A DNA stretch of 64,000 nt from a virus (IMGVR_UViG_3300028048_003124), one strand, 5' to 3'; shown: positions 4,979 through 61,717, numbered from the stretch's first letter. Notes: a model not told the origin generated them from the sequence alone. Program-made: numbers and translations.

Positions 4979-5353
4979 ATGAGTAATATGGTCGTTTCTT
5001 TGTACCTTGGTTTGACTTGGCAGGATGTGTTAAGGTATAGAGATATTATGCTCAACAAGTCTGATAAAGAAATAAAGGAAGGAAATTGTTTCACAAGAGC
5101 AGTAAACGCAGATACATATTCTGTTGAGTTATCTCTGGTAGATAGGGTAACAGATAATAGTGGGTTGGTTAGCCCAGTAGTTACAATCTCTGTACGTACA
5201 GGGGGTGTAGAGGTAGCAAAGGATATGTTCACTGGTACTGGTTTGAAGTTTGATGCTCATACCGAGGATTCAATTTGTCGGCTTTTTGTGTTACAACAAG
5301 GTTCAGATGTTACCTATCACGTAAATGTTAACATCGTAGATGATACAATGTAA
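4979..5353 (+). CDS. Hypothetical protein
   Basis: 124 aa ORF directly after the promoter. Confidence 0.65.
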   Translation: MSNMVVSLYLGLTWQDVLRYRDIMLNKSDKEIKEGNCFTRAVNADTYSVELSLVDRVTDNSGLVSPVVTISVRTGGVEVAKDMFTGTGLKFDAHTEDSICRLFVLQQGSDVTYHVNVNIVDDTM

Positions 5354-9338: not shown

Positions 9339-9341
9339 TAT

Positions 9342-9770: not shown

Positions 9771-9796
9771 CTAATTTATTTGGAGGTTGTAGTAGC

Positions 9797-11374
9797 ATGA
9801 AGAATACTATTGATGCTATAAAGTATGGTTTAGAGACCTTGGATGTAAGTCCAAAGGAGCTTTTTAAGCTAATAGAATCCTCGAAGGATTACGAGGGTAG
9901 TGACTATAAAAGGTGGCTATCCAGAGAAATAATTGCCCTTGCAGAGAATGATGGAATAGGTTATTCTCAGCTACTTGCAAAGTGGTTTAACTTGATACAG
10001 AATATCATTGACGAGTATGCCGATGGCTCTGTAAAAGAGTTCTTTGCAAACTACATAAAGAATTTATGTTTAGGCGATGTCTACACGGTTGGTATTGAAT
10101 CTGGTGAAGATGGTAGCAACATTTTTGGCAAAAGCGCCGATGAAGAAGATTGGGTATCTAAGGTTGATATGCCTTATAACTATGATTTCTTAGATACCTT
10201 GAGTGAGGATATGTCTACCTCTATAAAAGATGATAATCCTATTACGATTATCTATCGTGGAAATCCTAAAGCTTCTTTTAAAAAGAACTGTGATTTGGTA
10301 GTAGATTCAAAGATTTCGGGTATTCCTGTAAGAAACTATGATGCTTTGTTTCTCTATAGAATGTGTACCATAGTCAGAGCTCTTGGGGATGGTTGTGCTA
10401 ATCTTAGATTTATTTTTATCACAGATACTAAATTTCTTTATTCTAAAGATAATGAAGAAATTATCAAGTACTTACTAACATTCTTTAAATATGATGAGAC
10501 TTCTTGTGTTGTAAACACAAAAGACCTATATGAGGGTTCTTTCACTTCTGAAGATTATGCAGTTTGTATGTTCTCAGTAAGGGGAGAGAGTGACTCATAT
10601 CAGGATGGTATTGTGCTTAAAACCATGGAGATGGTTGATGGAGAATACTCTCAGTCCAAAAAGGCTAAGCGTTATTCTGTTGGTAAGGATATGTTGGAAG
10701 CTCTGTACGAAAAGTACAATGAGGCGGACTATACAGATAATGTACCCCTGCTGAATAGATCAATGGATAGCGTTGTAAGGGCTACCAAGGGTATCAAAAC
10801 AGCTCTTGGGTATATGTGTAAAGGTAATACAGATAGAAGTGTATTTTTATCTTGCTATCCTGTAGAGAATACTAGGTATATTGCAATAACAAAAGATAAT
10901 CTTTATGAGTTAATTGCCTATTATGGAGTAACTCAGTCGATGGATAATGCAGGAATGTTCTTGGGTATCAATGAGATTATAGATGGTCACCCAGATTACA
11001 TGAATTTAGTTTGTAATTGCATACCGATCTTCCTCTTTGATGTGAACAGTAAGTTTTGTAGCATAGGCTCGGTTGTATTGCCAAATGGTAAATCTGCTGT
11101 ACTGCAAAACAGGTTTGATGTTGTTTCATCTAAGGTGGTAACAAAGCTATTAGATGTAGGCTCAGTATATTTTAGTTATGAGGCTAAAGAGTTAATACAG
11201 GTTTGTAAAGGCTTGTTAGACTATTTTAAGGAGAACTTCGGAGAGGACTTAACTGGTCGTACTTTTGAGGAGATTCGTAAGGAAGCTTCTAATGAGAACC
11301 TAAATAGGGCTTATCTAAATGCTCTTTCCAGTTGTAAAGAGTTTGTAAGCTCTGCATATAGACAAATGTCATAA
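9797..11374 (+). CDS. Large hypothetical protein, possibly a degenerate adenine methyltransferase-like fold
   Basis: YDFLD...NPITIIYRGNPK...NYDALFLYRM resembles an MTase DFL / NPPY / LYAQFLYR layout. Confidence 0.4.
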   Translation: MKNTIDAIKYGLETLDVSPKELFKLIESSKDYEGSDYKRWLSREIIALAENDGIGYSQLLAKWFNLIQNIIDEYADGSVKEFFANYIKNLCLGDVYTVGIESGEDGSNIFGKSADEEDWVSKVDMPYNYDFLDTLSEDMSTSIKDDNPITIIYRGNPKASFKKNCDLVVDSKISGIPVRNYDALFLYRMCTIVRALGDGCANLRFIFITDTKFLYSKDNEEIIKYLLTFFKYDETSCVVNTKDLYEGSFTSEDYAVCMFSVRGESDSYQDGIVLKTMEMVDGEYSQSKKAKRYSVGKDMLEALYEKYNEADYTDNVPLLNRSMDSVVRATKGIKTALGYMCKGNTDRSVFLSCYPVENTRYIAITKDNLYELIAYYGVTQSMDNAGMFLGINEIIDGHPDYMNLVCNCIPIFLFDVNSKFCSIGSVVLPNGKSAVLQNRFDVVSSKVVTKLLDVGSVYFSYEAKELIQVCKGLLDYFKENFGEDLTGRTFEEIRKEASNENLNRAYLNALSSCKEFVSSAYRQMS

Positions 11375-11384
11375 GGAGGTATCT

Positions 11385-11564
11385 GTGGTGAAATACTCTT
11401 ACGGTAGAAAAAGAATGAGAGACAATCATTACAAAGATGAAGATTTCTGCGATTACACAGGAGATTTGTGTAAGAAGGTAGAACAGTGTGGTAGCGGTAG
11501 TAATGATGGAGACTGTGTAGGTTGCCCATGTTTTGAAGCTTATGCAATAGGGGATGATTTTTAA
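11385..11564 (+). CDS. Small Cys-rich protein (59 aa, not in ORF track)
   Basis: AGGAGG RBS, GTG start, ..FCDYTGDLC..C....DCVGCPC..DDF*, TAATG overlap with next gene. Confidence 0.65.
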   Translation: MVKYSYGRKRMRDNHYKDEDFCDYTGDLCKKVEQCGSGSNDGDCVGCPCFEAYAIGDDF

Positions 11565-12532
11565 TGGGTTCTCTAGTAGAGTTAAAAGACCCATCAAAGC
11601 AGGTACATTTGCTATTAGCTTCTTCTAACTTGGCTGAAATATATGTATATGATACTCTTAAAAGTAGATGCAATGCTACGTTAGAGAGTATTATGGATGT
11701 AAACTCTACATCTTCTTTCAAGGCTATGTTAGAGTTAGTAAACATACAGCCAAATCTTGCTGACAAGTGGCTATTCGTAATAGATTATAAGAAGGTTAGA
11801 AGTTTAATAAAGAAAACGATGGGTATCTTTCAATCTGATACATCGGTATTCTTGTTAAAGGTAAATACTTATAAGGATTTTAAAGAGGTAAAAGAGCTTG
11901 ATATAGATTTAAATGATCTTTATCTGGAGACTATAAGAAAACAGGAAGTCCAAAACCTGTTAAGGGGCTATAAGATATCTCCAAAAGTTGTTGACTTTGT
12001 AGCTTCTTCTTATTACAGAGATCCTGAAAAGGTGTTTGCTCTCAGAAAAGAGCTTGATAACGGAGCAGATGTAAATTCGCCAAAAGATGTAACGGCTTTG
12101 TGTGGTGAGAGTCTGGGAAGTGTTCAGAAGTTTGCCATGCAGTTATTAACTGATAAACCGAAAACTGAGATGTTTTTGAAGCGAAGTTATAAGAAACGTG
12201 TAAACGTTCTTTGTGATTTATGTGATACTTTTGGTAGTTCTACCGCTTATAATTATATAAAGGCTGCTGTCAAAGATATTCTCTATATAAAAATGTTGTA
12301 CATGGAGGGTACTATCTATAACCGTATAAGAGAGCTACCTGATTGCTTTGATGAGAAAAAATTATCGAAATATAATCATAGCTTAAGGGATATAGAGTTT
12401 GAGTTACAGTATGTAAAAATACTCCACTTGTATAATCTAATGAGTTCGACAGGAAGATGGAGAAATAGTCAGGATGGGGTATTGTTCTTGTATCAGTATT
12501 ATTTAGAGTTGATACACGTTTGGAATGATTAG
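11564..12532 (+). CDS. Putative clamp-loader delta (HolA)-like subunit
   Basis: 322 aa. NIQPNLADKWLFVID and YKISPKVVDFV...ELDN pattern typical of inactive AAA+ delta subunits; replication context. Confidence 0.5.
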   Translation: MGSLVELKDPSKQVHLLLASSNLAEIYVYDTLKSRCNATLESIMDVNSTSSFKAMLELVNIQPNLADKWLFVIDYKKVRSLIKKTMGIFQSDTSVFLLKVNTYKDFKEVKELDIDLNDLYLETIRKQEVQNLLRGYKISPKVVDFVASSYYRDPEKVFALRKELDNGADVNSPKDVTALCGESLGSVQKFAMQLLTDKPKTEMFLKRSYKKRVNVLCDLCDTFGSSTAYNYIKAAVKDILYIKMLYMEGTIYNRIRELPDCFDEKKLSKYNHSLRDIEFELQYVKILHLYNLMSSTGRWRNSQDGVLFLYQYYLELIHVWND

Positions 12533-42696: not shown

Positions 42697-42802
42697 TTAA
42701 ATACATCATCTAATGTTGATGCTTGCACGAACATTAGAAGTCTTGCAACCTCTGTATAGAGTACATTATTTTAAGTGTATTATTATACGGAGGTTTTTTA
42801 TT

Positions 42803-43615
42803 ATGTTAATAACAGAAGAAAATTTTGATAGGCTTTGTATCATATCCAACAATGGAGAGAAGTGGGTAATAACTAAATGGTATGGTGACGGGAGATTTAA
42901 GATAGAGCAAGGAGCAGCAACAGAAGAGAGAAAAGTGATAGATAATGTAGATGAGAAGGAGTTAGAGGTACTATTTAGAGGTAGTAGGATAGTTGAGATA
43001 GAGGGGAATGAAGAAAAAGGGAATAAGTTTATAAATAGAATAGGAGAGAGAAGTAGAAACTCGGAAGGTTTCCTAATGGAAATAACTGGGTATAGAAACG
43101 CAAATGATGTAGATGTGTTGTTTGTAGGATGTGATTTTGAGATTACTGGTACAAGATACAGTGGTTTTAAAGATGGGACACTATCCAACCCAATTTATAA
43201 GGTGGTGAGATGGACTTTAAGCCTGTTAATAGAGATGATACTAAATGAGAAGAAGGTCTGGGAAAACATTAAGGAATTAAAAGCCTATCGAGGAGAAATA
43301 GTGGCTGATTACTCTAAGAGCGATGAATATGCTGTAGACATAGATAAGATGGCAAGATTAACGAGATTGTTAGAAGAGTTTAACAGTGGTGAGGAAGGTG
43401 GTGATTGGTGTAAAATTTACCTGACTGATTTATGTGAACCAGACCTCTTGGGTATAATCAGAGATATAGAAACATATCTAAAGAAAGTCTATGGGTATTT
43501 CCATCTTGGAAGCGAAGCTGTAGTTGGTAAAGAGTTAGAAGATATAATAGAACAGACAAAGTTAAGCCTACGCAAGAAGGCTAGAAATGTAAAGAATGTC
43601 AAGGTTTATGACTAA
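42803..43615 (+). CDS. Protein carrying one copy of the ~55 aa RxGE repeat
   Basis: GGAGG RBS before ATG 42803. NRIGERSRNSEGFLMEITGYRNANDVDVLF...YSGFKDG. Confidence 0.75.
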   Translation: MLITEENFDRLCIISNNGEKWVITKWYGDGRFKIEQGAATEERKVIDNVDEKELEVLFRGSRIVEIEGNEEKGNKFINRIGERSRNSEGFLMEITGYRNANDVDVLFVGCDFEITGTRYSGFKDGTLSNPIYKVVRWTLSLLIEMILNEKKVWENIKELKAYRGEIVADYSKSDEYAVDIDKMARLTRLLEEFNSGEEGGDWCKIYLTDLCEPDLLGIIRDIETYLKKVYGYFHLGSEAVVGKELEDIIEQTKLSLRKKARNVKNVKVYD

Positions 43616-43635
43616 TACAAAGGAGGATAGTAATA

Positions 43636-44095: not shown

Positions 44096-44150
44096 GCAAG
44101 GTGTTTTAGAGTAAAATGTTATTATTCTAGAATACCTTGCAATTTTTTTT
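44096..44150 (+). terminator. Terminator overlapping the cassette A promoter
   Basis: gcaaggtgttttagagtaa / ttattctagaataccttgc stem (with G-T pairs) followed by T8. Confidence 0.65.
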
Positions 44151-44165
44151 AAAATATGTTAATAT
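44137..44165 (+). promoter_or_regulatory. Promoter of helicase cassette A
   Basis: TTGCAA-17bp-TAATAT. Leader ataagtagtt.aaaa.ttggaggtt is shared with 49173-49232. Confidence 0.7.
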
Positions 44166-44194
44166 ATAAGTAGTTTAAAACTTGGAGGTTATTT

Positions 44195-45856
44195 ATGTCT
44201 TTATTAGTTGATAGAAGGCGTGAGGAGACGTACGCAGAGGCTAAAAATATTGTAATGGAGAAAGGCAAGGTATTAATAATAAGACCGACTGGTTTCGGGA
44301 AGACGGGCATACTCACTCACTTTATAAGAGATTATACAAAGGGCTTGACAAAGAAAGATGGGTGTCAGGTTATGTATATCTTTCCTACTCAGGTAATAAA
44401 AGATGCTGTACTTAAATTTTATTACCAAGAGGAAGGTCACGAGGGTATTCCTAACGTGACATTCGTTTCCTATGCAGGATTGGGTACTATGACAAGAGAA
44501 AAACTAAATAAGTATTTTAAGAATGTGAAGCTCATATTAGCAGATGAAGCCCATCTACTTGCTGGAGATAAGAGAAGTATCGGTATTAAAAAGGTGTTAA
44601 ATTTTCTACCTAATGCTCATTTTGTAGGAGCGACAGCTACTCCAGATAGGCTTGATGGTAGAGACATTCTTGGCGACTATTTTGATTACAATAGGGTGAG
44701 TTACTACACTTTACACGACGCAATACAGGAAGGGGTAATTCAAAAGCCAGTATATGTCTGGGCTTCGTACACGCAAGCAGATAAAGATACAGAATTAAGC
44801 AAGGAATACTACGAAGGGTATAAACATCTTAATGTAGAAGAGCGTAAAGAGCTTGATAATTTACTAAGAAGTAAAGTAATTGAGATTTCAAGATTGCAAA
44901 GGTTGGACGTAATAATTAAAGATGTGCTTGAAAAGTACGCCAGAAATACAACGTATATAAGAGGTATATTGTTCTTCACTAGCTTCTCAGATCTACACGA
45001 TAAAGGGGATGAAGTGGTAAGTTGGTTTAAGAAGGCATACCCAAATTATAGGGTTAATGTAACAATAGTTTCATCTGAGAAAAAAGAGTACAGGGATAAT
45101 GCAAAGAAAGTAACATTTATGAAGAGACGTAAAAATGTTATAGATTTGATATTTTCTGTAAATATGATGAACTTAGGGTATCATGTACCAGATTTAACAT
45201 TTGTTGGAATGCTCAGGGGTACTGTAAGTGATATTATATATGCTCAACAGTTAGGAAGAGTATTAAACTCTGGAACAACTGTGTCAGGTATTGTTTTTGA
45301 TTTTGTGGATAATCTTTTTAGAAAATCTGCCTTTGATGTACTTCAGAAACTAAAAGATCCAACAATAAAAGCTAAAGAGAGATTAAATGAGCTGTCGGAT
45401 AAGGTAATTGAAGCAGGTGGCAGGGTGCCAAATAATATAAAAGGTTTGTCAGAAGATGAAGAGGATGAAGTAATAGCTCTGTGGCATAGATTTAATGATC
45501 ATATTGGAAAAGGACCGTATGTTTCTGTTAATCAGTTATTACCTCAAGACTTAATAGCCACTGGGTATGAGGCAACATTTAGGGAATTGGTTGCAAAGAC
45601 TGTTGGAGAACCTTTACAGCACAGGTGCCACTGGGCATGGGCAAGATGGGTAGATGCAGGTGGTAAAACTGGTGATGGTACAATAGATTACTTTTTCGGC
45701 AATGCTTTTCCGCAAAATATGCCACCGTTAGGACCTTATTGTTGGATATATGATGTTAAGATCGAGGATGTGCTAAAGGCAATATATGATCCAGATAGAG
45801 ATATACATAAAGAGGTTGAGGAGTATATTAAGGTGTGTAATGCAAATAAGAAGTAG
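44195..45856 (+). CDS. SF2 DExH helicase (ResIII/Irc3-like), cassette A
   Basis: PTGFGKT, DEAH, GATATPDRLDG, VNMMNLGYHV, QQLGR. Unrecognised C-terminal domain AFPQNMPPLGPYC. Confidence 0.9.
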   Translation: MSLLVDRRREETYAEAKNIVMEKGKVLIIRPTGFGKTGILTHFIRDYTKGLTKKDGCQVMYIFPTQVIKDAVLKFYYQEEGHEGIPNVTFVSYAGLGTMTREKLNKYFKNVKLILADEAHLLAGDKRSIGIKKVLNFLPNAHFVGATATPDRLDGRDILGDYFDYNRVSYYTLHDAIQEGVIQKPVYVWASYTQADKDTELSKEYYEGYKHLNVEERKELDNLLRSKVIEISRLQRLDVIIKDVLEKYARNTTYIRGILFFTSFSDLHDKGDEVVSWFKKAYPNYRVNVTIVSSEKKEYRDNAKKVTFMKRRKNVIDLIFSVNMMNLGYHVPDLTFVGMLRGTVSDIIYAQQLGRVLNSGTTVSGIVFDFVDNLFRKSAFDVLQKLKDPTIKAKERLNELSDKVIEAGGRVPNNIKGLSEDEEDEVIALWHRFNDHIGKGPYVSVNQLLPQDLIATGYEATFRELVAKTVGEPLQHRCHWAWARWVDAGGKTGDGTIDYFFGNAFPQNMPPLGPYCWIYDVKIEDVLKAIYDPDRDIHKEVEEYIKVCNANKK

Positions 45857-45865
45857 GAGGCTTAA

Positions 45866-46933
45866 ATGTCTACATTAAAAAATAGAGTAGGTGAACGTCG
45901 CCAGATGAGTAATGGCGAGTGGGCAACTATAACTTGCTACAATGGTTGTAAGGATTGTACAGTGGTTTTTGATGATGGTACTGTAAGAGAGCATATGTCG
46001 TATGATAGCTTTAAAAATGGTGTAATCTCGAAAAATGGGAAGTCAGGTAATTTTATCGACAGAACTGGTGAGAGAAAGCAGATGAGTAACGGGGAGTGGG
46101 TAACTGTTATTCGTTATGGTGGATGGGGGGATTGTGATTTTCGGTTTGACAATGGTGTTGTGAAACATGGTAAAAAGTATAGGGGTTTTTCAGATGGTAC
46201 TCTGTCAAGTCTTTCTAGGGAGGGGCAAACAAGTCAAGAGTGTAAGGAAAAATACATAGGAACAAAATGGAAGCAGAAGTGTGGTAAGACGGCAGAGATT
46301 ATAGATTATTTTGATTGGAATAATTGTACAGTAAGGTTTGATGATGGAACATTAAAAACAGGTGTTAAGGTAGGAAGACTAAAAGAAGGAAAAGTAGGGT
46401 ATGGAAGTAAACGTAAATTAAGAACTAGTGATATGTTGATGGGTTCCTCGAAGAGAATGAATTGTGGACTGACTGCTCAGATAGTGGGATTCACTAAATC
46501 TAAGAGCGGGGTAAAGAAATGCGTGTTACAGTTCGAGAATGGAGAGAGGACATCTGTTACTATGCCTAGCTATGATGCTGGAACTGTGCTTCCACCAAGT
46601 ATGAAGCCGTCATCTAAAGTAGGGAAAGTTTTTGTAGCAGATAACGGGTTTAAGGTAAGGGTGGTGTCTTGGGCAGGTAATGGTAAGTATCTATTTGAAT
46701 TCCAAGATGGTAAGAGAAATACAGGAGAGCTAAAGTGTAATTTAGCTCATGTAGCCCGTCCAATAGAGGTTGGAACTTATAGATACACTTTATACAATTA
46801 CAGGTATAATAAGTATTATGCGTATGATTTGGGTGATAAGAGGTATTTTAAATGTGAAGATAAAAACGGTGTTCGAGATGTACTAACTCTTGAAGAGATG
46901 ATGGTTAAGTCAGGGATAAAGTTGCTATTTTAA
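45866..46933 (+). CDS. Tandem-repeat protein (5 RxGE repeats + conserved C-terminal domain)
   Basis: Repeats such as RVGERRQMSNGEWATITCY....DCTVVFDDG....YDSFKNG; ends SGIKLLF. Confidence 0.85.
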   Translation: MSTLKNRVGERRQMSNGEWATITCYNGCKDCTVVFDDGTVREHMSYDSFKNGVISKNGKSGNFIDRTGERKQMSNGEWVTVIRYGGWGDCDFRFDNGVVKHGKKYRGFSDGTLSSLSREGQTSQECKEKYIGTKWKQKCGKTAEIIDYFDWNNCTVRFDDGTLKTGVKVGRLKEGKVGYGSKRKLRTSDMLMGSSKRMNCGLTAQIVGFTKSKSGVKKCVLQFENGERTSVTMPSYDAGTVLPPSMKPSSKVGKVFVADNGFKVRVVSWAGNGKYLFEFQDGKRNTGELKCNLAHVARPIEVGTYRYTLYNYRYNKYYAYDLGDKRYFKCEDKNGVRDVLTLEEMMVKSGIKLLF

Positions 46934-46941
46934 AAGTAGGG

Positions 46942-47004
46942 GTGAGTGATATAATGACTCTACAAGAAATGGTAGTAGTTTCAGGCAGAAAGTTGGTGTT
47001 TTGA
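46942..47004 (+). pseudogene. Orphan copy of the repeat-protein C-terminal tail (20 codons)
   Basis: VSDIMTLQEMVVVSGRKLVF*, with TGA overlapping the ATG of the next gene. Confidence 0.7.
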
Positions 47005-47681
47005 TGCCAAAGTTTGTAAATAGGACGGGCGAGACAAGATTGATGAATTGTGGACTGCGGGCTGAGATAGTAGAATATAGGTCATCATCTGATATAGATA
47101 TAGTATTTGAAACAGGAGAGAGGGTAAATAGCAGGAATTATAGTGCCTTTAAAGATGGGCACATTCTTCCAAAAACAGGACCAAACAAACACCGTTTAGG
47201 GGAAAAAAGGATGATGAGCTGTGGCTTAAGTGCGGAGATTATAAGGTATGGCGGTTGTTTTGATATTGATGTACGTTTTGAGAATGGGGTTGTTGTAGAA
47301 AATATTAGGTACAGTAAGTTTAAAACGGGAGATGTAGGTCACTCAATAGTGGTTGTTAACGGTAGGTTAGGTGAAATAAGAATGATGTATAATGGCTTAA
47401 GGGCAAAGATAGTTAAGTATAATACATCAAAAAATTATACTATTCGTTTCGAAGATGGTATTGAGGTTGTTTGTTCTGATTACAGGAATTTTTTAACAGG
47501 AAAGTGTAGGCACCCGCATTTCTCAACTGGCAATGTTTCAAGAAACTTCTACGGATATAAAGTGCGAAGGTGTTATGTATTAAGGGATAAGGTGTACTAT
47601 TTTTGTGAAAAGGGTGGGACAAGAGATATAATGACCCTACAAGAAATAGTAAAATCTATGGGTAGAGAATTGGTGTTTTAG
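47004..47681 (+). CDS. Tandem-repeat protein (3 repeats + C-terminal domain)
   Basis: RTGETRLMNCGLRAEIVEY....DIDIVFETG type x3; ends MGRELVF. Confidence 0.85.
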   Translation: MPKFVNRTGETRLMNCGLRAEIVEYRSSSDIDIVFETGERVNSRNYSAFKDGHILPKTGPNKHRLGEKRMMSCGLSAEIIRYGGCFDIDVRFENGVVVENIRYSKFKTGDVGHSIVVVNGRLGEIRMMYNGLRAKIVKYNTSKNYTIRFEDGIEVVCSDYRNFLTGKCRHPHFSTGNVSRNFYGYKVRRCYVLRDKVYYFCEKGGTRDIMTLQEIVKSMGRELVF

Positions 47682-48878
47682 ATGAGAAATAAATTTGATA
47701 GATTGGGAGAAACTAAAGTAATGCTTTGTGGTCTAAAAGCCACAATTATTCGCTATGGGGGTTATAATGATGTAGATATTCGTTTTGAGGATAACTCTAT
47801 AGTAAAAAACATTTACTATAAGCGTTTTTCAAATGGAACGGCAAAACCATTAAGATTAAGACATAAAAAGCCAGTAAATGATAGGACTGGTGAGGAAAAA
47901 GTGATGTCGTGTGGGTTAAAGGCTAAGATAATTGCTTACAGGAACTGTTGTGATATGGATGTGATATTTGAAGACGGTCAAATCAGAAAAGGAGTAAAGT
48001 ATAGTTCTTTTAGACATGGTTACATAGCTCCAGAGATTGACCCTAGGGTAGTGGTGGAGCAACAAAGTAGACTTGGTATGGAGCGTAAAATGAATTGTGG
48101 TTTGGTTGCGAAAATCATAGCCTACAGAAGTTCTGCTGATATAGATGTACAGTTTCCAGATGGAAGTATAAATAAGAATAAGCTATATTCCAGTTTTCTT
48201 AAAGGGGAGATAGCTCCCAAAAAGTGTAATCGTGTCGGAGAAAAGAGAATAATGAATTGTGGGTTAGAAGGTGAGATAATTCGTTATGGTACAGCTGAGG
48301 ATATAGATGTACGTTTTCCAAATGGCAGTGTAGCTAAAGGAAAAACATATGGTTCCTTTTCAAAAGGTAGTATAAAACCCCCAATAAACCCATATGTGGG
48401 TGAGAGACGTATGATGAATTGTGGTCTGGAGTGTGAGATAGTTCGTTATGTGGGTTGTAGAAATATAGACGTTAGATTTTCAAACGGTGTTGTAGTAAAC
48501 AGTAATCTTGCAAAGTTTAAGAATGGTAAGATAACGCCAGATTATGCAGAAATAACACATAGAGAGGGTTTAATCGTACAAACAAACTGCGGTTTAAGGG
48601 TAAAAATCGTAAGGTACAGTAGTAGTGCAGACATAGATATCTGTTTTGAGGATGGTGCAGTTATAAACAATACTAGATATGATGGAATATCCAAGGGTTC
48701 TGTGCTACATCCGAGCATGCTTGGAGGTTTATATTCAAGAGATTTCCATGGGTATAAGATTAAGTTTGCATATAAGTTAGGGGATTTAGTTTACTATTTC
48801 TGTGAAAAAAGTGGAGAAAGAAGTATAATGACCCTACAAGAGATGGTAATAGCTTCAGGTGGAAAACTTGTCTTTTAG
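47682..48878 (+). CDS. Tandem-repeat protein (6 repeats + C-terminal domain)
   Basis: RxGE..MNCGL...I.RY....DIDVRF.DG type x6; ends SGGKLVF. Confidence 0.85.
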   Translation: MRNKFDRLGETKVMLCGLKATIIRYGGYNDVDIRFEDNSIVKNIYYKRFSNGTAKPLRLRHKKPVNDRTGEEKVMSCGLKAKIIAYRNCCDMDVIFEDGQIRKGVKYSSFRHGYIAPEIDPRVVVEQQSRLGMERKMNCGLVAKIIAYRSSADIDVQFPDGSINKNKLYSSFLKGEIAPKKCNRVGEKRIMNCGLEGEIIRYGTAEDIDVRFPNGSVAKGKTYGSFSKGSIKPPINPYVGERRMMNCGLECEIVRYVGCRNIDVRFSNGVVVNSNLAKFKNGKITPDYAEITHREGLIVQTNCGLRVKIVRYSSSADIDICFEDGAVINNTRYDGISKGSVLHPSMLGGLYSRDFHGYKIKFAYKLGDLVYYFCEKSGERSIMTLQEMVIASGGKLVF

Positions 48879-48942
48879 AGTGGGTTTAAAAGATGAGAAA
48901 GTGCCGAATGTAAGAGTATCTGCAATAATTACCAATGATGGT

Positions 48943-48977
48943 CTTGCACTTCTTGTCCATATATGGTAAGATATATT
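48943..48977 (+). repeat. 35-bp exact direct repeat, copy 1; a sigmaA-like promoter
   Basis: cttgcacttcttgtccatatatggtaagatatatt, identical to 53930..53964. TTGCAC-17-TAAGAT. Confidence 0.85.
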
Positions 48978-49086
48978 TGGAAGTAAGGCTGTAGTTGGTG
49001 ATGAGTTAAAGGAGTTAGTAGAGAGTGCAAAGGAAGGTTTGAGAAAGAAGGCTAGAAACATAAAGAATATCAAGGTGTATTGTTAA
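48976..49086 (+). pseudogene. 3' remnant of a paralog of 42803..43615
   Basis: FGSKAVVGDELKELVESAKEGLRKKARNIKNIKVYC* vs LGSEAVVGKELEDIIEQTKLSLRKKARNVKNVKVYD* (43505..43615). Confidence 0.8.
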
Positions 49087-49172
49087 TATGAGCATACCTG
49101 TTTATCATTTTTGATCTCCTCTCTTAATATGTGTAAGGTCTACTTACTTAAAAAAATTTATTTCAGAATGCC

Positions 49173-49201
49173 TTGCAAAAATGAAAGAATTTTGCTAATA
49201 T
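49173..49201 (+). promoter_or_regulatory. Promoter of helicase cassette B
   Basis: TTGCAA-17bp-TAATAT, homologous to 44137..44165. Confidence 0.7.
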
Positions 49202-49232
49202 ATAAGTAGTTAAAAAGTTGGAGGTTTTAATT

Positions 49233-49976
49233 ATGTCTACAGGGTTGCAAAGAGATGTATACATGGAGATATCAGAGACTGGCATGAAAGAAGCTATAGC
49301 TCTGTTTGAGTCTTTTGTAAAAAGAAACCCAGAGATGGTAAAATCTGATCTTAAGTCTTGTGAACAACCAGAGAAGTCTTTTACTGTTGTATTAACAGAT
49401 TGGTTTAAGTTAAAGGTATTAATAAAAGGTAAAGAGTATACCGTAACTGAGTATAAAGATAACGATAAGACTTTTGCGCTATCTTTTATTCCAAAGGTAG
49501 ATAGAATCGGTGATTTGTTAATTAAGATGTCCTCTTTGTCTGTATATGGAGAGAAAGAAGAGGGGTACTTAAGACACAATGTACCTGCCTTTAAGTTTTG
49601 GCTTGAGAGAGCGGCGAAGTTAGCAGTATCTGCAAGTATGCTAATAAGATATCAAAAGATACAATATGTAGAAAGAAAAAGGCAGAATTTTGCAACGGGT
49701 AATGTTGTAGACTTAACTAAACCGAGTAAAGATATAGTGATAGATTTGGAAAAGGCTATAAGGACTAAGCCAGTAAGTACTGGTAAGGGTGGCGAGCATA
49801 GTTATTGCTACTCCAGAAGTGCTTGTGATTGCTACCTTAAAAAGTATAAAAAGTGGTACAAGCGAGGTGTATCAATAGTACATCCTGAAAAACCTACGAG
49901 GGCGCAGGGAAGTAAAACTGTTAAAGGTTTGGATAAAGCTGAGTTATTAAAAGGGAAAGGTATAGCTTATGGATAG
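49233..49976 (+). CDS. Hypothetical protein with basic C-terminus, first gene of cassette B
   Basis: GGAGG RBS before ATG 49233; overlaps helicase B start. Confidence 0.75.
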   Translation: MSTGLQRDVYMEISETGMKEAIALFESFVKRNPEMVKSDLKSCEQPEKSFTVVLTDWFKLKVLIKGKEYTVTEYKDNDKTFALSFIPKVDRIGDLLIKMSSLSVYGEKEEGYLRHNVPAFKFWLERAAKLAVSASMLIRYQKIQYVERKRQNFATGNVVDLTKPSKDIVIDLEKAIRTKPVSTGKGGEHSYCYSRSACDCYLKKYKKWYKRGVSIVHPEKPTRAQGSKTVKGLDKAELLKGKGIAYG

Positions 49977-51786
49977 TAATATGCTTATAGCAAGAAGAAG
50001 GGAAGAGTGCTATCAGGATGCAGTAAACCTGTTAATGGAGTATGACGAATGTTTAATACCAAGGGGTACTGGTTTTGGAAAGACTGGTATATTGATGAGG
50101 ATAGCTCATGATTATTTGAAAGGGTATAAAAGAGGTATATTAAACCAAAAAGTTTTATACCTATATCCGCATACCTCTGTGTTAGAACAGGCTGAGAATT
50201 TTTGGGGTATATTTAAGTATAATAAAGACAAATTTAAGGGCATACGTTGTATGTCCTATACTGCTTTTTTATACATGAGTAGGGAGAGAATGGAGAAGGA
50301 GTTTAAAAGAGTTAACTTAATTCTCTGCGATGAGTGTCATTTCCTACCAGCTAAACAGATTTCAAAGGCTTTTGAAATGTTGAGAGATGTTAGACAGGAT
50401 GCAAAGGTTGTAGGTGCAACAGCTACTGTACTTCGTATGGATGGTAAAGATCTTGTTGAAAGATTTTTCAAAGGTCATGTAGTGAGGGAGTACACGTTGT
50501 CCGACATGATTGCAGAAGGGGTAGTAAAGAAGCCGTTTTATTTGTACTGTACTTTTGACAACGAAGATTCTATAAATAAGGCTGTAAGAAGGCTTCAAGA
50601 TGAGGTAAAAGGTTTGTCCTTTAAAGAAACTGAAAAAGTAAAAAAACATATAAGGAGTGAATATGCAAGAGCCTCAGCAATGGTGGGAGTAAAGAGGGTA
50701 TTTTCAGATGTACTCCACAACCATGCTCCCAACCAGAGGATAATAACTGGTATTTTCTTTTTTAAGACAATAAAACATATTTATGATAGAAGAAAAGAAA
50801 TTGAAGAGATGGTTAGAGCAGCATATCCGAATCATAAATTAAATATAGTGATACTGCATAGTCAATTAAAAGAGAAAGAAAAGATTGAGGCTTTAGAAGC
50901 TGTCAGTTGTTTTGGAGAAGAGGAAGATGTTTGTAACATCGTATTAAATGTAGATATGTTAAGCCACGGGGTACATATATCAGGATTGACTTTTGTTGCT
51001 ATGTACAGGGAAACATCTTCTGGTTTAATATATGGTCAGCAGTTTGGAAGAGCTATAGACTCTGGCAGTAGTGTACCGTCTATTATATTTGATATGGTAG
51101 ACAATTTACATAGACCAAGTATCTACAAGTCTGATGATAGAAAACAGATATCTGAAGAGGATCTTGCTCTTTGGGAGAGGTTGAATGAGAAGCTTATTAA
51201 TAAGGGTATTTATGATTTAAGCGATATTGAAAGTGTATTAACAGCCGAAGAGGTTTCAGAATATAAAAGGTTATCCAACCTAATAAATACTCCAATAATT
51301 ATTGACAAAGGTGGTACCAGAGGAGGAGATAAAAGTAGTTGTGATCCTTGGTATTACAATGTAAATACTATCTCCGAGAAAGATGTAAATGTGTTAACAA
51401 GCTCTGCAAGTGTAAGAGAGATAATGGAAAAGGTAGACGGATATAGTTTAAGAGCACAGGCAAAGAGAGCTCACCTCATGTGGATCAAGCATTTTAAAGA
51501 ATTAAATCAAGAAGATTATAACAGGTTTATACGGTTGCAAGATAATAATAAGGTGAGGTATATATTAGATAAAGCTTTCCCAGATAAAGGGGTACCACCT
51601 TTCTTAAGGTACTGTGCTTGTAGCAGCATCACGCTTGAAAGAGCACTATATTGTCTATACAACTATACAATGACTAAAAAAGACATACAGGAGTATATAA
51701 ACAGAGCAAAAAACTTAGAGAATTCCTTTATGTTATGTAATGGAGTTGAAGTCGCCAGTCGGGGGTGGATTGGACGTGCGCAGTGA
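49969..51786 (+). CDS. SF2 DExH helicase (ResIII/Irc3-like), cassette B
   Basis: GTGFGKT, DECH, GATATVLRMDG, VDMLSHGVHI, QQFGR. C-terminal AFPDKGVPPFLRYC shared with helicase A. Confidence 0.9.
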   Translation: MDSNMLIARRREECYQDAVNLLMEYDECLIPRGTGFGKTGILMRIAHDYLKGYKRGILNQKVLYLYPHTSVLEQAENFWGIFKYNKDKFKGIRCMSYTAFLYMSRERMEKEFKRVNLILCDECHFLPAKQISKAFEMLRDVRQDAKVVGATATVLRMDGKDLVERFFKGHVVREYTLSDMIAEGVVKKPFYLYCTFDNEDSINKAVRRLQDEVKGLSFKETEKVKKHIRSEYARASAMVGVKRVFSDVLHNHAPNQRIITGIFFFKTIKHIYDRRKEIEEMVRAAYPNHKLNIVILHSQLKEKEKIEALEAVSCFGEEEDVCNIVLNVDMLSHGVHISGLTFVAMYRETSSGLIYGQQFGRAIDSGSSVPSIIFDMVDNLHRPSIYKSDDRKQISEEDLALWERLNEKLINKGIYDLSDIESVLTAEEVSEYKRLSNLINTPIIIDKGGTRGGDKSSCDPWYYNVNTISEKDVNVLTSSASVREIMEKVDGYSLRAQAKRAHLMWIKHFKELNQEDYNRFIRLQDNNKVRYILDKAFPDKGVPPFLRYCACSSITLERALYCLYNYTMTKKDIQEYINRAKNLENSFMLCNGVEVASRGWIGRAQ

Positions 51787-52654
51787 CTTTAAAGATAGAG
51801 TTGGTGAGCGCCGACAAATGAGAAATGGCGAGTTTGCTACAATAATTAGATATGGCAGTAGTCTTGATATTGATGTTCAGTTCGATAGTGGTTATATTTC
51901 AAGAAATAAGCAGTATAGCTCATTCTCTGTAGGTAGCATAAGGAATGTAGAGAGTGGTAAATCGGCTAAAGGTGCAAAAGCTAGATCCTCCTATGTTGGA
52001 AAGGTTGTAACAAATAAGGAAGGCGAAAAAGTAAAATGCATCGAGTACAGAGGGTATTATGATATAGATGTTGAGTTCGAGGATGGCTTGGTATTAGAAA
52101 GTAAATCGGCAAGAAGTTTCTTAAGTGGTTATATAATACGCCCTTATGAAGGACGTGTAAAGAAAAACAAAAATGGTCTAAACACAATAATAAAAGAGTA
52201 TCGTTCCCCTACAGATATTGACGTAATTTTTGATGATGGAGAAGTAGTAGAGGGTGTTAGTTTTTGTAGATGGAATGCAGGTAAAATTCTCCATCCAAAG
52301 TGGAGGGAAAACAGGCTACTTGATACCGTAAAATGTGAAATATATTCTAACATTCAGGGTTTTAGGTATAAGATAGTCGAGACAAAAAACTCAATAGATG
52401 TAAAGGTGCTTTTTGAGGACGGAGAGGAAGCAGATGCAAGATTAAGTAATGCCAAAAGAGGTAGAGTTGGATACCCAGGGTTTAGTAATGGTTTATGTAA
52501 AATGTTGTATGAAAGGTTTAAGGATGTACACAAGGTGTATGAAATCAAAGGGAAGGGTGTATTTATTGAATACACTGATACTCAAGATGGTGCTACAAAG
52601 ATAGGTAAAATTCAAGAGCTAATGGATATGATAGGTATAAAGAGGTTATTCTGA
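51740..52654 (+). CDS. Tandem-repeat protein (4 repeats + C-terminal domain)
   Basis: RVGERRQMRNGEFATIIRYGSSLDIDVQFDSG...; ends IGIKRLF; start may be GTG 51776. Confidence 0.85.
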   Translation: MELKSPVGGGLDVRSDFKDRVGERRQMRNGEFATIIRYGSSLDIDVQFDSGYISRNKQYSSFSVGSIRNVESGKSAKGAKARSSYVGKVVTNKEGEKVKCIEYRGYYDIDVEFEDGLVLESKSARSFLSGYIIRPYEGRVKKNKNGLNTIIKEYRSPTDIDVIFDDGEVVEGVSFCRWNAGKILHPKWRENRLLDTVKCEIYSNIQGFRYKIVETKNSIDVKVLFEDGEEADARLSNAKRGRVGYPGFSNGLCKMLYERFKDVHKVYEIKGKGVFIEYTDTQDGATKIGKIQELMDMIGIKRLF

Positions 52655-53901
52655 TGAAAAAGATATATGTAAACGGGGTAAAAGGCATTACAGTTTACGG
52701 AATCGGCATGGTGATAGTAGATGATAGTAATAGTAGATCTCTTACAGTCAAGCTAGAGACTAATGAAATTATCTATAATGTCACAGTAAATAGCTTTAGA
52801 GAAGGTTTAGTTCATAGCTCATTTGAGGATATAGGGAAGTTCAAAAAAGGGACAGAGTGGAGAGTTCTAAATGGTATTGGTCGCATAGTTGGTAAGAGAA
52901 AATATAAGTGTGATATTGAAGGTATAAACGGGGAAGGATATGCTTTCGATGTTTATCCTTGGGCTTTAGAGAATGGTAATGCTACATTAAGTTGGAATAT
53001 AGTTGGTACCGAGAGGGCTAACGGCGATGGTAGGATAGTGAAGATACTTGAGGTTGTAGATAGTGAAAATATCAGGGTACAGCTTGAAAAAGACGGAATA
53101 AAAGATATTGTGGTATGTCCAATAAAAGATTTTATAAATAAAAGTATTGGTGTATATGATAAAAGGAAGGAAAAGTTCTTAAATAGCTTAAAAGGTAAGA
53201 GGGTACTCCAACCTAATAGCGGTATGTTTGCAGAAGTAAAAAATGTTTACAGAGAGAATGGTATCATAATTTGTGATATATTGTTTGATGACGGAAAAAT
53301 TGTAGACGGTGTAACGTATGCTAACTTTTGCGCAGGTAGTGTAAAACACCCTGAAAAGAGATTGCATATAGACAAGATAGTGGAAAAGAAAGAAAAAGAG
53401 GTTGTAATAAATAAGGATGGTAGGAAATCAAGGTTAAAACGTTGGAGAGGTAATCAACGTGTAGACGTAGTTTTTATAAATGAAGATGGAACAGAGGATA
53501 TTATTGTAGAAGATGTAAATTACAGATCTTTTAAGGCTGGTAATGTAAAACACCCAGATGATGAAACAATAGTCGGTGAAATAGTTGTCAATACAGACGG
53601 TTTTAGAATGAAAATGGAGAATGACGACAATACAAAAGAGTGTAATATACTTTTTGAGGATGGTAGAGAAGTTACAAATAGCAAGTCAAATTTCCTAAAC
53701 GGGAGTGTTGGTCACCCACTATTTAAAGGCACGAAGAGAAGATCTTGCAAAGCCTATGGAGATGTTTTAGATGTACATAGAGAGTTTAAAACCTCTCAAG
53801 GAGTTTGCTACTGGTCATGGGTAAGATATGGAGAATATACTAGGGAGTTAGGAACAGTAGAGAACTTAATGACAGCAGCGGGTATTAAGCCAGTATTTTA
53901 A
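52654..53901 (+). CDS. Tandem-repeat protein (~6 diverged repeats + C-terminal domain)
   Basis: CDILFDDG..YANFCAGSVKHP, VDVVF..YRSFKAGNVKHP, CNILFEDG..NFLNGSVGHP; ends AGIKPVF. Confidence 0.8.
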   Translation: MKKIYVNGVKGITVYGIGMVIVDDSNSRSLTVKLETNEIIYNVTVNSFREGLVHSSFEDIGKFKKGTEWRVLNGIGRIVGKRKYKCDIEGINGEGYAFDVYPWALENGNATLSWNIVGTERANGDGRIVKILEVVDSENIRVQLEKDGIKDIVVCPIKDFINKSIGVYDKRKEKFLNSLKGKRVLQPNSGMFAEVKNVYRENGIIICDILFDDGKIVDGVTYANFCAGSVKHPEKRLHIDKIVEKKEKEVVINKDGRKSRLKRWRGNQRVDVVFINEDGTEDIIVEDVNYRSFKAGNVKHPDDETIVGEIVVNTDGFRMKMENDDNTKECNILFEDGREVTNSKSNFLNGSVGHPLFKGTKRRSCKAYGDVLDVHREFKTSQGVCYWSWVRYGEYTRELGTVENLMTAAGIKPVF

Positions 53902-53929
53902 AGTAAAGTTAACAATTCTCACTGAAGAG

Positions 53930-53964
53930 CTTGCACTTCTTGTCCATATATGGTAAGATATATT
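53930..53964 (+). repeat. 35-bp exact direct repeat, copy 2; a sigmaA-like promoter
   Basis: Identical to 48943..48977. Confidence 0.85.
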
Positions 53965-58910: not shown

Positions 58911-58939
58911 TTGCAAAAAGAAGAGAATTGTGTTACAAT
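58911..58939 (+). promoter_or_regulatory. sigmaA-like promoter
   Basis: TTGCAA-17bp-TACAAT with extended TG. Confidence 0.7.
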
Positions 58940-58968
58940 TAACCTACAAAAGCAAGGAGGTTGTTACA

Positions 58969-59625
58969 ATGAAAAATAATAGTGGGTTTGTAAATAACGA
59001 AAAAGTATCTCCGAAATCAGATGGTATTAAGGTTAAGGGGTATGAGGCATTAGTCAATAGGATTGGTGAGGAGAGGGTTGCCAACAACGGTCTTATGATG
59101 AAGATCGTAGGGTATCGAAACGCAAATGATATTGACGTCCTTTTCGAGGATGGTACACTTGTTGTAGGTAAGTCTTATGCATCTTTCCTTAAGGGCAGTA
59201 TTGCTAAGAAGAAAACTGAGCTTGAGTGTATTTCAGACTCCTTAACTGAGTTATACGATACATTCTGTGATGATGGCGCGAAGATACGTGAGATTATCAT
59301 AACCTTTGTTGAAGACCATGAGTTTCAAATCATTTCAGACAAGGGTATTTTTTATATAAACAACAATAATCATTTGGTCGATAAGATCATTCATGACGCT
59401 TCTTTTGCGTTAAAGAGATACCCTCACAAAAGTGCTGTACTCAATAAATTGTACAGACGTGTTATGAGATATATCAACTATCGTAAAATCAATGTATCTA
59501 AAGTTACATTCGAGATTGACAACGAGAGATTTACCTCGTCGGGTGTTACTATAACCTCTGAGAGTGTTAACTATGTTGAGGGTTTTATACATTTTTCTTT
59601 TTCGACGAATCTGTCTAAAGCTTAG
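58969..59625 (+). CDS. Protein carrying one RxGE repeat
   Basis: AGGAGG RBS. NRIGEERVANNGLMMKIVGYRNANDIDVLFEDG...YASFLKG. Confidence 0.8.
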   Translation: MKNNSGFVNNEKVSPKSDGIKVKGYEALVNRIGEERVANNGLMMKIVGYRNANDIDVLFEDGTLVVGKSYASFLKGSIAKKKTELECISDSLTELYDTFCDDGAKIREIIITFVEDHEFQIISDKGIFYINNNNHLVDKIIHDASFALKRYPHKSAVLNKLYRRVMRYINYRKINVSKVTFEIDNERFTSSGVTITSESVNYVEGFIHFSFSTNLSKA

Positions 59626-61047: not shown

Positions 61048-61717
61048 AATTGGTGAAAACTGGTGGTATGTGGATACGGTATAAGTTTAGTAAAGATTAG
61101 TGTTTATTTAGGTGTTGTAGATTGATCGGAATTTTCGTAGAATACAAAAACTGGCAAGAGATGTGTGGTCGTTAGTTATGCTAATACCATAAGAGTTTAT
61201 GATAGAAATTTCCTAAAAATTAGGAGTAATTTTCGGTTGAGTCGTTGGTGGGGCAGTGCTTTCTAAGATGGTCGATTTTCAACATTATAAAAGAAGTGTA
61301 TTTTAAGATTACAGTAGTGAGTTTTAAAGAGGTTGAGTAGAAGAGGGTATTCAAAACGTACTCTTAGATTGTTATATTTTGATATTTAAATTTAGATACT
61401 AGAAGAATTTTATTAGAATTTATAAGGATAAAACCCTTTATTGATATACAATTTTAGATTCTATAAGTTTATTTTAGTCTGAGTATGTGTATTTGTTGAA
61501 TATGTTTGTACTTTTTTAGTTCTATGAAGTATAAAATTAGAAAAAAGAAAGAATTTATTAGAGTTTAGAAATATTTTATTAGAAACTATAATGAGAATTG
61601 TTTGATACACTGATGGTATATTTATGTGTAAGTTGTATCGGGTGCATTGCTTTAAGTAAAATAATTATTTTTAGTGGTTTTCCAAGAAATATTTTTATGA
61701 GAGGAGAAGTTTGTAGT

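Follow-up and report, generated by a model that had tools for sequence, protein, structure and literature searches.

A phage-like contig of 229 kb contains, at 44.1-53.9 kb, two tightly packed gene cassettes, each of which combines an SF2 helicase with intact motifs and, downstream of it, three (cassette A) or two (cassette B) proteins built from tandem repeats. This module is probably a motor that is steered to chosen DNA sites, because dozens of further sequences from phages and mobile elements show the same pairing of helicase and repeat array. The more specific reading, in which each cassette is a two-component machine comprising a nuclease-free SF2 ATPase motor and one to four interchangeable address proteins, is in our judgement about evenly balanced between right and wrong. 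No published description of a module of helicase and arrays was found in the literature.

The window analysed here comprises 64,000 nucleotides of the contig, and its relevant features are collected in Table 1. An earlier note, made from the sequence alone, had described two cassettes in which a helicase is tightly coupled to three or two repeat proteins, and the gene calls agree with this: all cassette genes are on the + strand, and neighbours either overlap or are 0-10 nt apart. The 247-aa gene that opens cassette B is not conserved in related modules. A six-frame translation of the window, compared with a hidden Markov model (HMM) of the repeat unit, yielded only two single units besides the partner proteins, both in solo-unit genes outside the cassettes.

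Table 1. Positions of genes and sequence elements in and around the two cassettes
Feature	Position	Strand	Remarks
Solo-unit protein	42713-43615	+	One unit (unit HMM); acidic, no tail; outside module
Terminator-like hairpin and T-run	44096-44140	+	19-pair stem, T8 tail; closes upstream operon
Leader A	44122-44200	+	TTGCAA-N17-TAATAT (promoter-like), GGAGG (ribosome-binding site) and start of helA; leader B is homologous
helA, SF2 DExH helicase (ResIII/DEAD)	44195-45856	+	553 aa; helical C-terminal third, no nuclease domain
A1, partner protein	45866-46933	+	355 aa; 4-5 units (unit HMM) and tail ending GIKLLF
Orphan second copy of tail-coding 3' end	46933-47004	+	Between A1 and A2; stop overlaps A2 start (TGATG)
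A2, partner protein	47001/47004-47681	+	226 aa; 3 units (unit HMM) and tail; model pLDDT 92.9
A3, partner protein	47682-48878	+	398 aa; 6 units (unit HMM) and tail
Promoter-like 54-nt element, copy 1	48924-48977	+	TTGCAC-N17-TAAGAT
Decayed copy of 3' end of gene 42713-43615	48977-49088	+	73% to 43506-43617
Leader B	49158-49238	+	Homologous to leader A
First gene of cassette B	49233-49976	+	247 aa, basic; no family; 3' end overlaps helB start
helB, SF2 helicase, paralogue of helA	49969-51786	+	605 aa; 31% identity to helA
B1, partner protein	51740-52654	+	304 aa; 3-4 units (unit HMM) and tail ending GIKRLF
B2, partner protein	52654-53901	+	415 aa; 4-5 detectable units (unit HMM) and degenerate N-terminal ones; tail ending GIKPVF
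Promoter-like 54-nt element, copy 2	53911-53964	+	Serves next operon
Second solo-unit protein	58930-59625	+	One unit (unit HMM), no tail

The two leaders, in which promoter-like hexamers were assigned by direct reading of the sequence, are 77% identical over 81 nt, with a match of 87% over 39 nt. Their homology had been noted before, although the B copy precedes the 247-aa gene and not helB. The two copies of the 54-nt promoter-like element are 87% identical, against no copies expected by chance, and because one is located after each cassette, this element would serve cassette B and the next operon, but not cassette A.

The cassette helicases are SF2 helicases or translocases (ResIII/DEAD, DExH) with two RecA-like domains. 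Pfam gives matches to ResIII, DEAD and Helicase_C, and Foldseek, with a probability of 1.0, to RadD, LlaBIII, SauUSI and XPB. Among solved structures, the nearest are those of dsDNA translocases and repair helicases, namely SauUSI (7clg, 4e-23), HsdR (3h1t, 2e-15), XPB and RadD. Across 25 relatives there is no variation in Walker A, DExH, motif III or motif VI (residues G33-G35-K36-T37, D117-E118-H120, T149 and Q351-Q352-G354-R355), and no nuclease family was found in the helicases with Pfam, NCBIfam or PADLOC, as the initial description of intact-motif DExH helicases without a recognisable nuclease had it. In PADLOC v2 (library of 2023) the helicases have only weak, motor-level matches and the partners none; the match to mREase_IV (E=5e-13) is confined to profile positions ~300-590. 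The motor of helA begins at residue ~10, and the C-terminal third is all-helical in the model and matches no family. Helicase-associated (HA) repeats, described earlier as frequent on such helicases, were not found: Pfam gives no HA family for helA or helB at E<=0.1. The identity between helA and helB extends over the full length and includes the C-terminal motif that the earlier note had quoted. This C-terminal domain is indeed common to both paralogues, but it is also present in a sister clade without adjacent arrays, and is therefore not a mark specific to the partnership.

The partners are built from a repeat unit of ~52 aa, of which there are about 21-25 over the five proteins. Further degenerate units at the N-terminus of B2 are visible by eye, and the copy numbers originally counted (5, 3, 6, 4 and ~6) are matched by the unit HMM together with inspection. 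The unit corresponds to no family in Pfam, PHROG or NCBIfam and to no solved structure, and its family amounts to 3353 clusters at 50% identity. Among the best 150 array proteins, 60 contain a nuclease inside the array, 33 consist of arrays only, and seven have an N-terminal TniQ domain, one of these in a dual-tniQ locus. The array-embedded nuclease, with arrays on its flanks, is of the Vsr-like (EDxHD) type, and matches DUF2726, MTES_1575, DUF559 and the catalytic domain of I-Bth0305I (3r3p, E=4e-4). One or two units are also present at the N-terminus of 'HNH endonuclease' proteins of PHROGs 953, 374 and 2081; the unit HMM matches these, which bears out the earlier statement that similar units occur N-terminally in phage HNH endonucleases. 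The repeat has thus proved modular, as had been suggested, and is widely reused in nuclease, TniQ and HNH fusions. As these other contexts are DNA-site-selecting proteins, we infer that the unit may be a modular DNA-reading unit.

All five partners share a C-terminal tail of ~55 aa. In most relatives this tail is a predicted zinc-binding CxCxxC...HxC mini-domain; in the window phage the cysteines are gone and the end reads G-x-K-x-V-F. A tail HMM matches only arrays beside the helicase. Arrays that lack the tail are present in phage records without a helicase of the cassette clade, two of them rated 100% complete, and complete jumbo-phage records likewise contain arrays and no such helicase. 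Within cassettes, identity is usually higher in the tails than in the arrays (82-94% versus 63-75% at locus L076, and 94-96% versus 67-75% at L074).

The linkage between helicase and tail-bearing arrays holds in both directions. Every one of the 11 independent contigs that encode a helicase of this clade (13 cassettes) has tail-bearing array genes directly adjacent to the helicase, upstream or downstream. A search based on the tail found 22 JGI metagenome loci, 15 with the helicase adjacent and seven cut by contig ends; the helicase is thus adjacent in all 15 evaluable loci. Helicase and tail-bearing array are the sole families common to 19 module loci, with no third gene shared, and the duplicated helicases of the window and of the related phage L001 have a separate set of partners for each copy. 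Co-occurrence of repeat and helicase, for which an HMM test had been suggested, therefore applies to the tail-bearing subfamily and not to repeat proteins overall: the family at large is often helicase-free, as the 60 nuclease-containing and 33 array-only proteins among the 150 indicate, and the tail-bearing form is not. Locus L074, where three arrays bear the tail but no helicase lies within 10 kb, counts against the two-component reading. At L076, a non-phage element, a short helicase without the C-terminal third still keeps four partners, so the contact site, if any, would not be the helicase C-terminal domain singled out at first. Judged from these comparisons, the tail of the partners, and not that domain, is the specific mark of the partnership.

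Sequence comparison with L001 shows a helicase that changes far more slowly than its partners: identity to the counterpart there is 95% for helA (an ortholog), 85% for A2 and only 47% for A3, and A1 has no ortholog in that phage. The orphan tail fragment between A1 and A2 resembles the tail of a 343-aa partner in a sister phage, and is therefore interpreted as a gene-replacement scar. The decayed 3'-end copy that follows cassette A shows that the flank was duplicated along with the cassette.

The arrays change fast even where the phage helicases are 95% identical, and the window has both a recombination scar and a duplicated flank. All this could also be expected if the arrays descended from free-standing homing endonuclease genes, as selfish elements without a nuclease whose landing site is now the helicase gene; they would then be adjacent through homing and not through joint action of the proteins. 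The unit is common to two homing-endonuclease families, and array genes number from 1 to 4, upstream or downstream of the helicase. Free-standing homing genes, too, are variable genes beside a conserved DNA-metabolism gene, which counts against the reading that we prefer. Sporadic occurrence is normal for homing genes, however, whereas occupancy is complete here among both the helicase contigs (11/11) and the evaluable tail-found loci (15/15). Helicase and array genes moreover form one operon with translational coupling, the HMM of the array-embedded nuclease has no match in the window, Pfam and PHROGs give no nuclease for A1-A3 or B1-B2, and alignments of the tail contain no conserved catalytic histidine. 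On balance, we regard this origin of the arrays as unlikely.

A different objection arises from the structure of the unit, which is predicted with high confidence to fold as an SH3-like (KOW/Tudor-type) barrel. In the AlphaFold2 model of A2, each unit consists of four strands and a short helix. The VIA structure comparison aligned 43-51 residues with KOW, Tudor and SH3 domains at rmsd 1.7-3 A and Z 4.0-5.4, weak matches that apply at the fold level alone and imply neither homology nor function. The best of them are to the Spt5 KOW, 53BP1 tandem Tudor and UvrD/PcrA C-terminal Tudor domains. Over 1029 aligned units the framework is invariant and about 16 positions are of high entropy, a pattern that, like the basic character of the partners, favours a DNA reader; the most conserved residues, on the other hand, include five acidic ones (E5, D25, D27, E31 and D32). 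An acidic conserved cluster is unusual on a DNA-contact surface, and protein or RNA ligands are commoner in this fold class, both of which count against the arrays as DNA readers. The barrels might instead bind protein or RNA, for example RNA polymerase, as do the KOW domains of Spt5/NusG and the C-terminal Tudor-like domains of UvrD/PcrA; the module would then be a motor that is coupled to transcription or remodels RNPs, and its adaptors would be multivalent. The best structural matches and the acidic cluster favour this explanation, but we consider it distinctly unlikely, since the unit is elsewhere fused to enzymes that select DNA sites (nuclease, TniQ, HNH), the five partner proteins are basic (pI 8.6-9.5), and the structural resemblance is only that of a common small fold (Z about 5).

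The surroundings of the module offer a third interpretation. Module loci are found amid genes for DNA polymerase, RecD/ExoV-like and SbcCD-like proteins, gyrase, UvrD and methylase, and the arrays could be ordinary phage transcription or replication regulators whose proximity to the helicase reflects a shared early DNA-metabolism neighbourhood. This is very unlikely, as the neighbouring genes vary between loci, the helicase-array pair alone is constant, and the tail is confined to that pairing. That the repeat genes are decayed, functionless fragments, as the degenerate units in B2 and A1 and the one orphan tail fragment might suggest, is hardly credible, being contradicted by five ORFs that are all intact and coupled, framework residues conserved over 1029 units, a confident model (pLDDT 92.9) and synteny kept across distant contigs.

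For the preferred reading of a motor steered by address proteins, DNA binding, tail-helicase contact, recruitment and biological purpose can be envisaged as follows. Each address protein would string together 2-8 small barrels of SH3-like fold, in which a fixed framework presents variable surface positions and the barrels jointly read a specific DNA stretch. The tail would be the common handle that couples every address protein to the helicase of its own cassette, and the motor would be brought to the addressed sites or activated at them. Its unwinding or translocation there may clear or open DNA for the recombination and replication enzymes encoded nearby; alternatively, the motor may act on the DNA of a competitor or host. 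New addresses could arise by duplication, by a changed number of units, and by recombination across the conserved end that encodes the tail. We suggest more tentatively, and with some doubt, that the module represents an unrecognised class of sequence-addressed motor, a helicase programmed in trans by diversifying arrays, and that the SH3-like units are a new DNA-recognition scaffold, shared with homing endonucleases and Tn7-type selectors, for which a unit-to-sequence code may exist.

In type I restriction, the HsdR motor is recruited by a separate HsdS specificity subunit. HsdR (3h1t) and the type IV enzyme SauUSI (7clg) have an SF2 motor of the same broad branch as the cassettes, and in both specificity comes from another polypeptide or a separate domain, an arrangement that for the cassettes is proposed only. 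The cassettes differ in having no nuclease, methyltransferase, HsdS-type or SRA-type domain, and the arrays are of unrelated fold. A type I restriction enzyme was rejected because the cassette proteins contain no PD-(D/E)xK nuclease, methyltransferase or HsdS and the motor region alone aligns (3h1t, REase_I); a SauUSI-type enzyme was rejected because neither an N-terminal PLD nuclease nor a C-terminal modified-base domain flanks the motor. TALE and zinc-finger arrays likewise consist of small modules in tandem, variable in number, with variable positions on a fixed framework, but their fold is unrelated, and a unit-to-base code is only conjectured for the cassette arrays.

In the I-Bth0305I-type (EDxHD) and PHROG 953/374/2081 HNH families, the ~52-aa unit is the non-catalytic, presumably DNA-positioning part, although I-Bth0305I itself has NUMOD2 helix-turn-helix motifs and not an SH3-like barrel (PMC3239194; PDB 3r3p). 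The window partners have the tail instead of a nuclease domain, and were rejected as homing endonucleases of either type (EDxHD/Vsr-like or HNH) on the absence of a catalytic domain in searches with the nuclease HMM, Pfam and PHROGs. In Bacillota, TniQ N-domains are fused to unit arrays where TnsD has its DNA-binding region, which a published Tn7-family survey describes as modular and swappable (PMC10293859); a text search of that survey found no mention of the array unit. The window contains neither a TniQ domain (PF06527) nor a transposase, TniQ being present only in other unit-bearing proteins.

If the arrays read DNA, they would constitute a large uncurated DNA-reading family of more than 3000 clusters at 50% identity, whose unit is attached in nature to nucleases, to transposon target selectors and, in trans, to a motor. 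This would provide a new view of site choice by homing endonucleases and Bacillota Tn7-like elements, and possibly an engineering scaffold alongside zinc fingers and TALEs. The helicase module itself is a conserved two-gene unit, and a testable pair, in jumbo-phage genomes that are gene-dense and mostly unannotated, and its combination of a stable motor with fast-changing partners resembles either an arms race or a selfish system that switches sites.

The window lies in a contig of 229,201 bp that we treat as coming from a large uncultured phage. All of its genes are carried on the + strand, its G+C content is ∼35%, and its products include a family-A-type DNA polymerase, a RecD/ExoV-like helicase and SbcCD-like proteins. 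Where relatives of its proteins bear a taxonomic label, this is Uroviricota or Bacillota, and GenBank phages yielded neither a DNA match to the region nor a tblastn match to A3, the last gene of cassette A. An earlier note had described two cassettes, each with a homologous promoter/leader and an intact-motif helicase lacking a recognisable nuclease domain, followed by three (cassette A) or two (cassette B) tightly packed repeat proteins. This layout is borne out by gene calls and by a profile of the ∼52-residue repeat unit (see table). Genes within the cassettes are separated by 0-10 nt or overlap, and a six-frame search of the window with the unit profile found no units beyond the five partner proteins (A1-A3, B1 and B2) and two single-unit proteins.

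Features of the two helicase-array cassettes and their surroundings (window positions)
Feature	Position	Strand	Description
Single-unit proteins (two)	42713-43615 and 58930-59625	+	single unit each; unit profile, six frames
Homologous leaders	44122-44200 vs 49158-49238	+	77% identity
helA	44195-45856	+	SF2 helicase, cassette A
A1	45866-46933	+	4-5 units (unit profile)
A2	47001/47004-47681	+	3 units (unit profile)
A3	47682-48878	+	6 units (unit profile)
Decayed copy	48977-49088	+	last ∼110 nt of gene 42713-43615; 73%; upstream of leader B
Extra gene	49233-49976	+	first of cassette B; 247 aa, pI 9.5
helB	49969-51786	+	SF2 helicase, cassette B
B1	51740-52654	+	3-4 units (unit profile)
B2	52654-53901	+	4-5 units (unit profile)

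Both leaders contain TTGCAA-N17-TAATAT followed by GGAGG, and a second promoter-like element lies 3′ of each cassette, with 29 nt identical between the copies. Upstream of leader B, the 3′ end of the gene preceding cassette A recurs in decayed form, which means that a cassette was copied or moved with its flank attached. The extra gene of cassette B has no Pfam or PHROG family and is not conserved in other loci of this kind; in a language-model atlas it lies close to clusters whose members carry PF26125 (AcrVA2-like) in 28% of cases, with a score of 0.91 that serves as a lead only. Elsewhere in the window, four clustered copies of TTAGA-N3-TAGAAG (≤1 mismatch) occupy a single intergenic region at 61392-61571. 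This local cluster could be a binding-site array and is a candidate target of the repeat proteins; in the window as a whole, the motif is no more frequent than chance predicts (6 copies against 4.6 expected).

The two helicases are 31% identical end to end and retain all ATPase motifs. Their nearest solved sequences are the motor of SauUSI (7clg, 4e-23), the type I subunit HsdR (3h1t), XPB and RadD, in agreement with a Foldseek search using the helicase model (pLDDT 77). The restriction enzymes among these relatives carry nuclease and recognition domains in cis, whereas the cassette motor has neither. Its last ∼165 residues are helical in the model and match no family.

The repeat unit has no family in Pfam, PHROGs or NCBIfam, where we found only scattered sub-threshold matches to DUF5780, T4 Gp30.7, DUF2187 and Tudor models. 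In three array proteins (P0152, P0122 and P0260), borderline Pfam matches align the array with the N-terminal ∼55 residues of T4 Gp30.7 (PF06919) and the C-terminal part of DUF5780 (PF19092), which may be single-unit relatives of the repeat. Among 1.84 billion cluster representatives, the unit profile matched 3353 proteins at E ≤ 1e-3, of which 1060 reached E ≤ 1e-30; a single protein has as many as 13 units. The profile gave no significant match in a sequence search of the PDB. In an AlphaFold2 model of A2, built from 55 aligned relatives (pLDDT 92.9), each unit consists of four strands plus a short helix, and the C-terminal ∼55 residues that the partners share, referred to here as the tail, form a four-stranded sheet with a helix. 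Structure searches returned small SH3-like barrels at the level of fold only (Z 4.0-5.4), including Spt5 KOW, the 53BP1 tandem Tudor, the UvrD/PcrA C-terminal Tudor and the Hpy99I N-terminal domain. An alignment of 1029 units revealed a near-invariant framework (R2, G4, E5, G12, I17-I18, Y20, D25-I-D-V28, F30-E-D-G33, Y41, F44, G47, I49 and P52) and ∼16 highly variable positions. As a DNA pattern, DIDVxFEDG was usable in IMG/VR; in genome contigs, unrelated Chloroflexia genes swamped it, and ∼12 of the 120 loci listed were true.

Helicase and arrays are closely linked. At least 677 of 8000 candidates scored were relatives of the helicase; in IMG/VR, a single-sequence helA query found no related loci and an alignment query was needed. 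All 11 independent contigs examined that have a helicase of the helA clade (the window, L001/2, L003/4, L005, L006, L009, L076, L138, L227, L228 and L229) carry tail-bearing array genes directly beside it, one to four per helicase and either upstream or downstream. Helicase profile E-values in these contigs range from 1e-148 to 1e-249, with a shorter helicase in L076, and the neighbour in L228 has kept its tail although its units are nearly unrecognisable. Helicases of a sister clade (L007, L008, L010 and L011; 29-33% identity) have the C-terminal domain in common with the helA clade but no arrays beside them. In JGI metagenomes, 22 loci matched the tail pattern; the helicase is adjacent in 15, and the remaining 7 end at a contig edge. 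In IMG/VR, a DNA pattern for the zinc-type tail gave chance matches and one known locus only. Across 19 loci of the module, that is, a nuclease-free helicase of this clade with adjoining tail-bearing arrays, the helicase and arrays are the only genes in common. Only L074 clearly departs from this pattern: its three arrays with tails (9073-11813) have no clade helicase within 10 kb; on this 203-kb contig, the arrays adjoin SecY, SecDF, YidC, SecG and topoisomerase genes. Tail-less arrays also occur in phage records without a helA-clade helicase, two of them rated complete. In the earlier note, repeat genes that usually occur without this helicase were to count against the proposed system: this holds for the repeat as such, but the tail-bearing subfamily is almost always found with it.

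Two of the linked contigs have further features. L076 (6121-12536) encodes a 453-aa helicase without the C-terminal third, then four arrays (8, 3, 5 and 7 units) whose tails are almost the same. Other products of L076 are IS200-type transposases, an HNH protein, a 1849-aa NlpC/P60 protein, an EcoRI-type methylase and GmrSD; it resembles a conjugative or integrative element more closely than a phage. On L227, a 167-kb phage-like contig, a 579-aa protein with a Cas12f1-like TNB domain (TnpB-like; 3461-5200) lies 1.8 kb upstream of the module.

In most relatives the tail contains C-x-C-x-x-C...H-x-C, presumably a zinc site. The lineage of the window, L001 and L009 has lost these Cys/His ligands, and its proteins end in G-x-[KE]-x-[VLA]-F. 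A minimal HNH/beta-beta-alpha-Me nuclease was considered as the identity of the tail and rejected on the alignments, as there is no conserved His at the catalytic position and window tails lack the Cys/His ligands altogether. Within one cassette, tails are usually, not always, more alike than arrays, and we read the tail as a putative shared handle to the helicase. Complex predictions for full-length helA with A2, run without controls, scored 0.66, 0.00 and 0.26, with the median below the mark, and weigh neither for nor against an interaction.

Partners turn over rapidly between close relatives. In the sister phage (L001), the helA ortholog is 95% identical, and its partners are proteins of 343 aa (47% to A3) and 235 aa (85% to A2), with no counterpart of A1; its second cassette differs, as the helicase there shares 52% identity with helA and has a single partner. 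Between A1 and A2 of the window lies a 71-nt second copy of a tail-coding 3′ end (46933-47004), which encodes ...IMTLQEMVVVSGRKLVF and whose stop codon overlaps the A2 start. Because this orphan end resembles the tail of the 343-aa partner in the sister phage rather than the tail of A1 itself, it is a recombination scar, the footprint of gene replacement across the conserved tail-coding end. Such variability could be accounted for if the array genes were selfish genes; this is an unlikely explanation, as it leaves the complete occupancy of helicase loci, the operon coupling and the absence of a nuclease unexplained.

The proteins to which the unit is joined elsewhere point to its role. Among the best 150 of the array proteins, 60 contain within the array a ∼155-aa domain matching DUF2726, MTES_1575 and DUF559, and also the catalytic domain of I-Bth0305I, a homing endonuclease (3r3p, E = 4e-4); these nuclease-bearing proteins also match PHROGs named homing, HNH or intron-encoded nuclease. 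The tail is present in 42 of the 150, 33 consist of the array only, and nine have a long N-terminal domain (seven TniQ, one an unrelated SF2 helicase). A helicase-unit fusion, P0260, falls outside the helA clade and provides 'Rosetta' evidence at superfamily level only. One locus from a Bacillota-type genome has a TniQ-array gene directly 3′ of a second tniQ, which is the 'dual tniQ/tnsD' arrangement known for Tn7-like elements, where the C-terminal part is a DNA-binding target selector (PMC10293859). TniQ-array fusions were seen in bacterial MAGs (L191 874-4309 and L202 3975-5768), one directly after a second tniQ, as a dual selector, and the other immediately 3′ of comM-like and dprA genes. 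The 'HNH endonuclease' proteins of PHROGs 953, 374 and 2081 in IMG/VR phages begin with one or two units, which confirms the statement of the earlier note that similar beta-rich units occur N-terminally in phage HNH endonucleases. A protein of PHROG 4538 (L016 4579-6000; unknown function) has one N-terminal unit, several Cys-rich modules, a PD-(D/E)xK-like segment and a C-terminal HTH-like region; it is another homing-endonuclease-like architecture using the unit. Since the fusion partners are all enzymes that need placement on particular DNA sites, and the window arrays are basic (pI 8.6-9.5), we infer that the unit reads DNA. Binding of protein or RNA by the barrels would suit the class of fold and the acidic residues that the unit conserves; it is at odds with these fusion partners, and we regard it as quite improbable. 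That helicase and arrays merely share a neighbourhood is a poor fit and very unlikely, and decay of the repeat genes, also a poor fit, is scarcely credible.

We therefore favour, at about even probability, a module that acts as a sequence-addressed motor: arrays would select DNA sites and be coupled to the helicase by the tail, and the repertoire of addresses would change fast. At its site, the motor might open DNA for the replication and recombination enzymes encoded nearby, remove proteins, or work on foreign DNA. Type I and type IV restriction enzymes have the motor branch in common with the module, homing endonucleases have the reader unit in common, and TniQ fusions elsewhere use the same reader; the defining features of all of these systems, including TniQ/TnsD, are absent from the module. 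It likewise lacks the defining features of the helicases with HA repeats that the earlier note had named. In literature on TniQ repeats, jumbo-phage tandem repeats and modular DNA-binding repeats, we found no description of the unit, the tail or the helicase-array pairing. The module is kin to modular DNA readers tethered to enzymes and to motors with separate specificity subunits, with a real though lesser chance that it deserves the rank of a new class.
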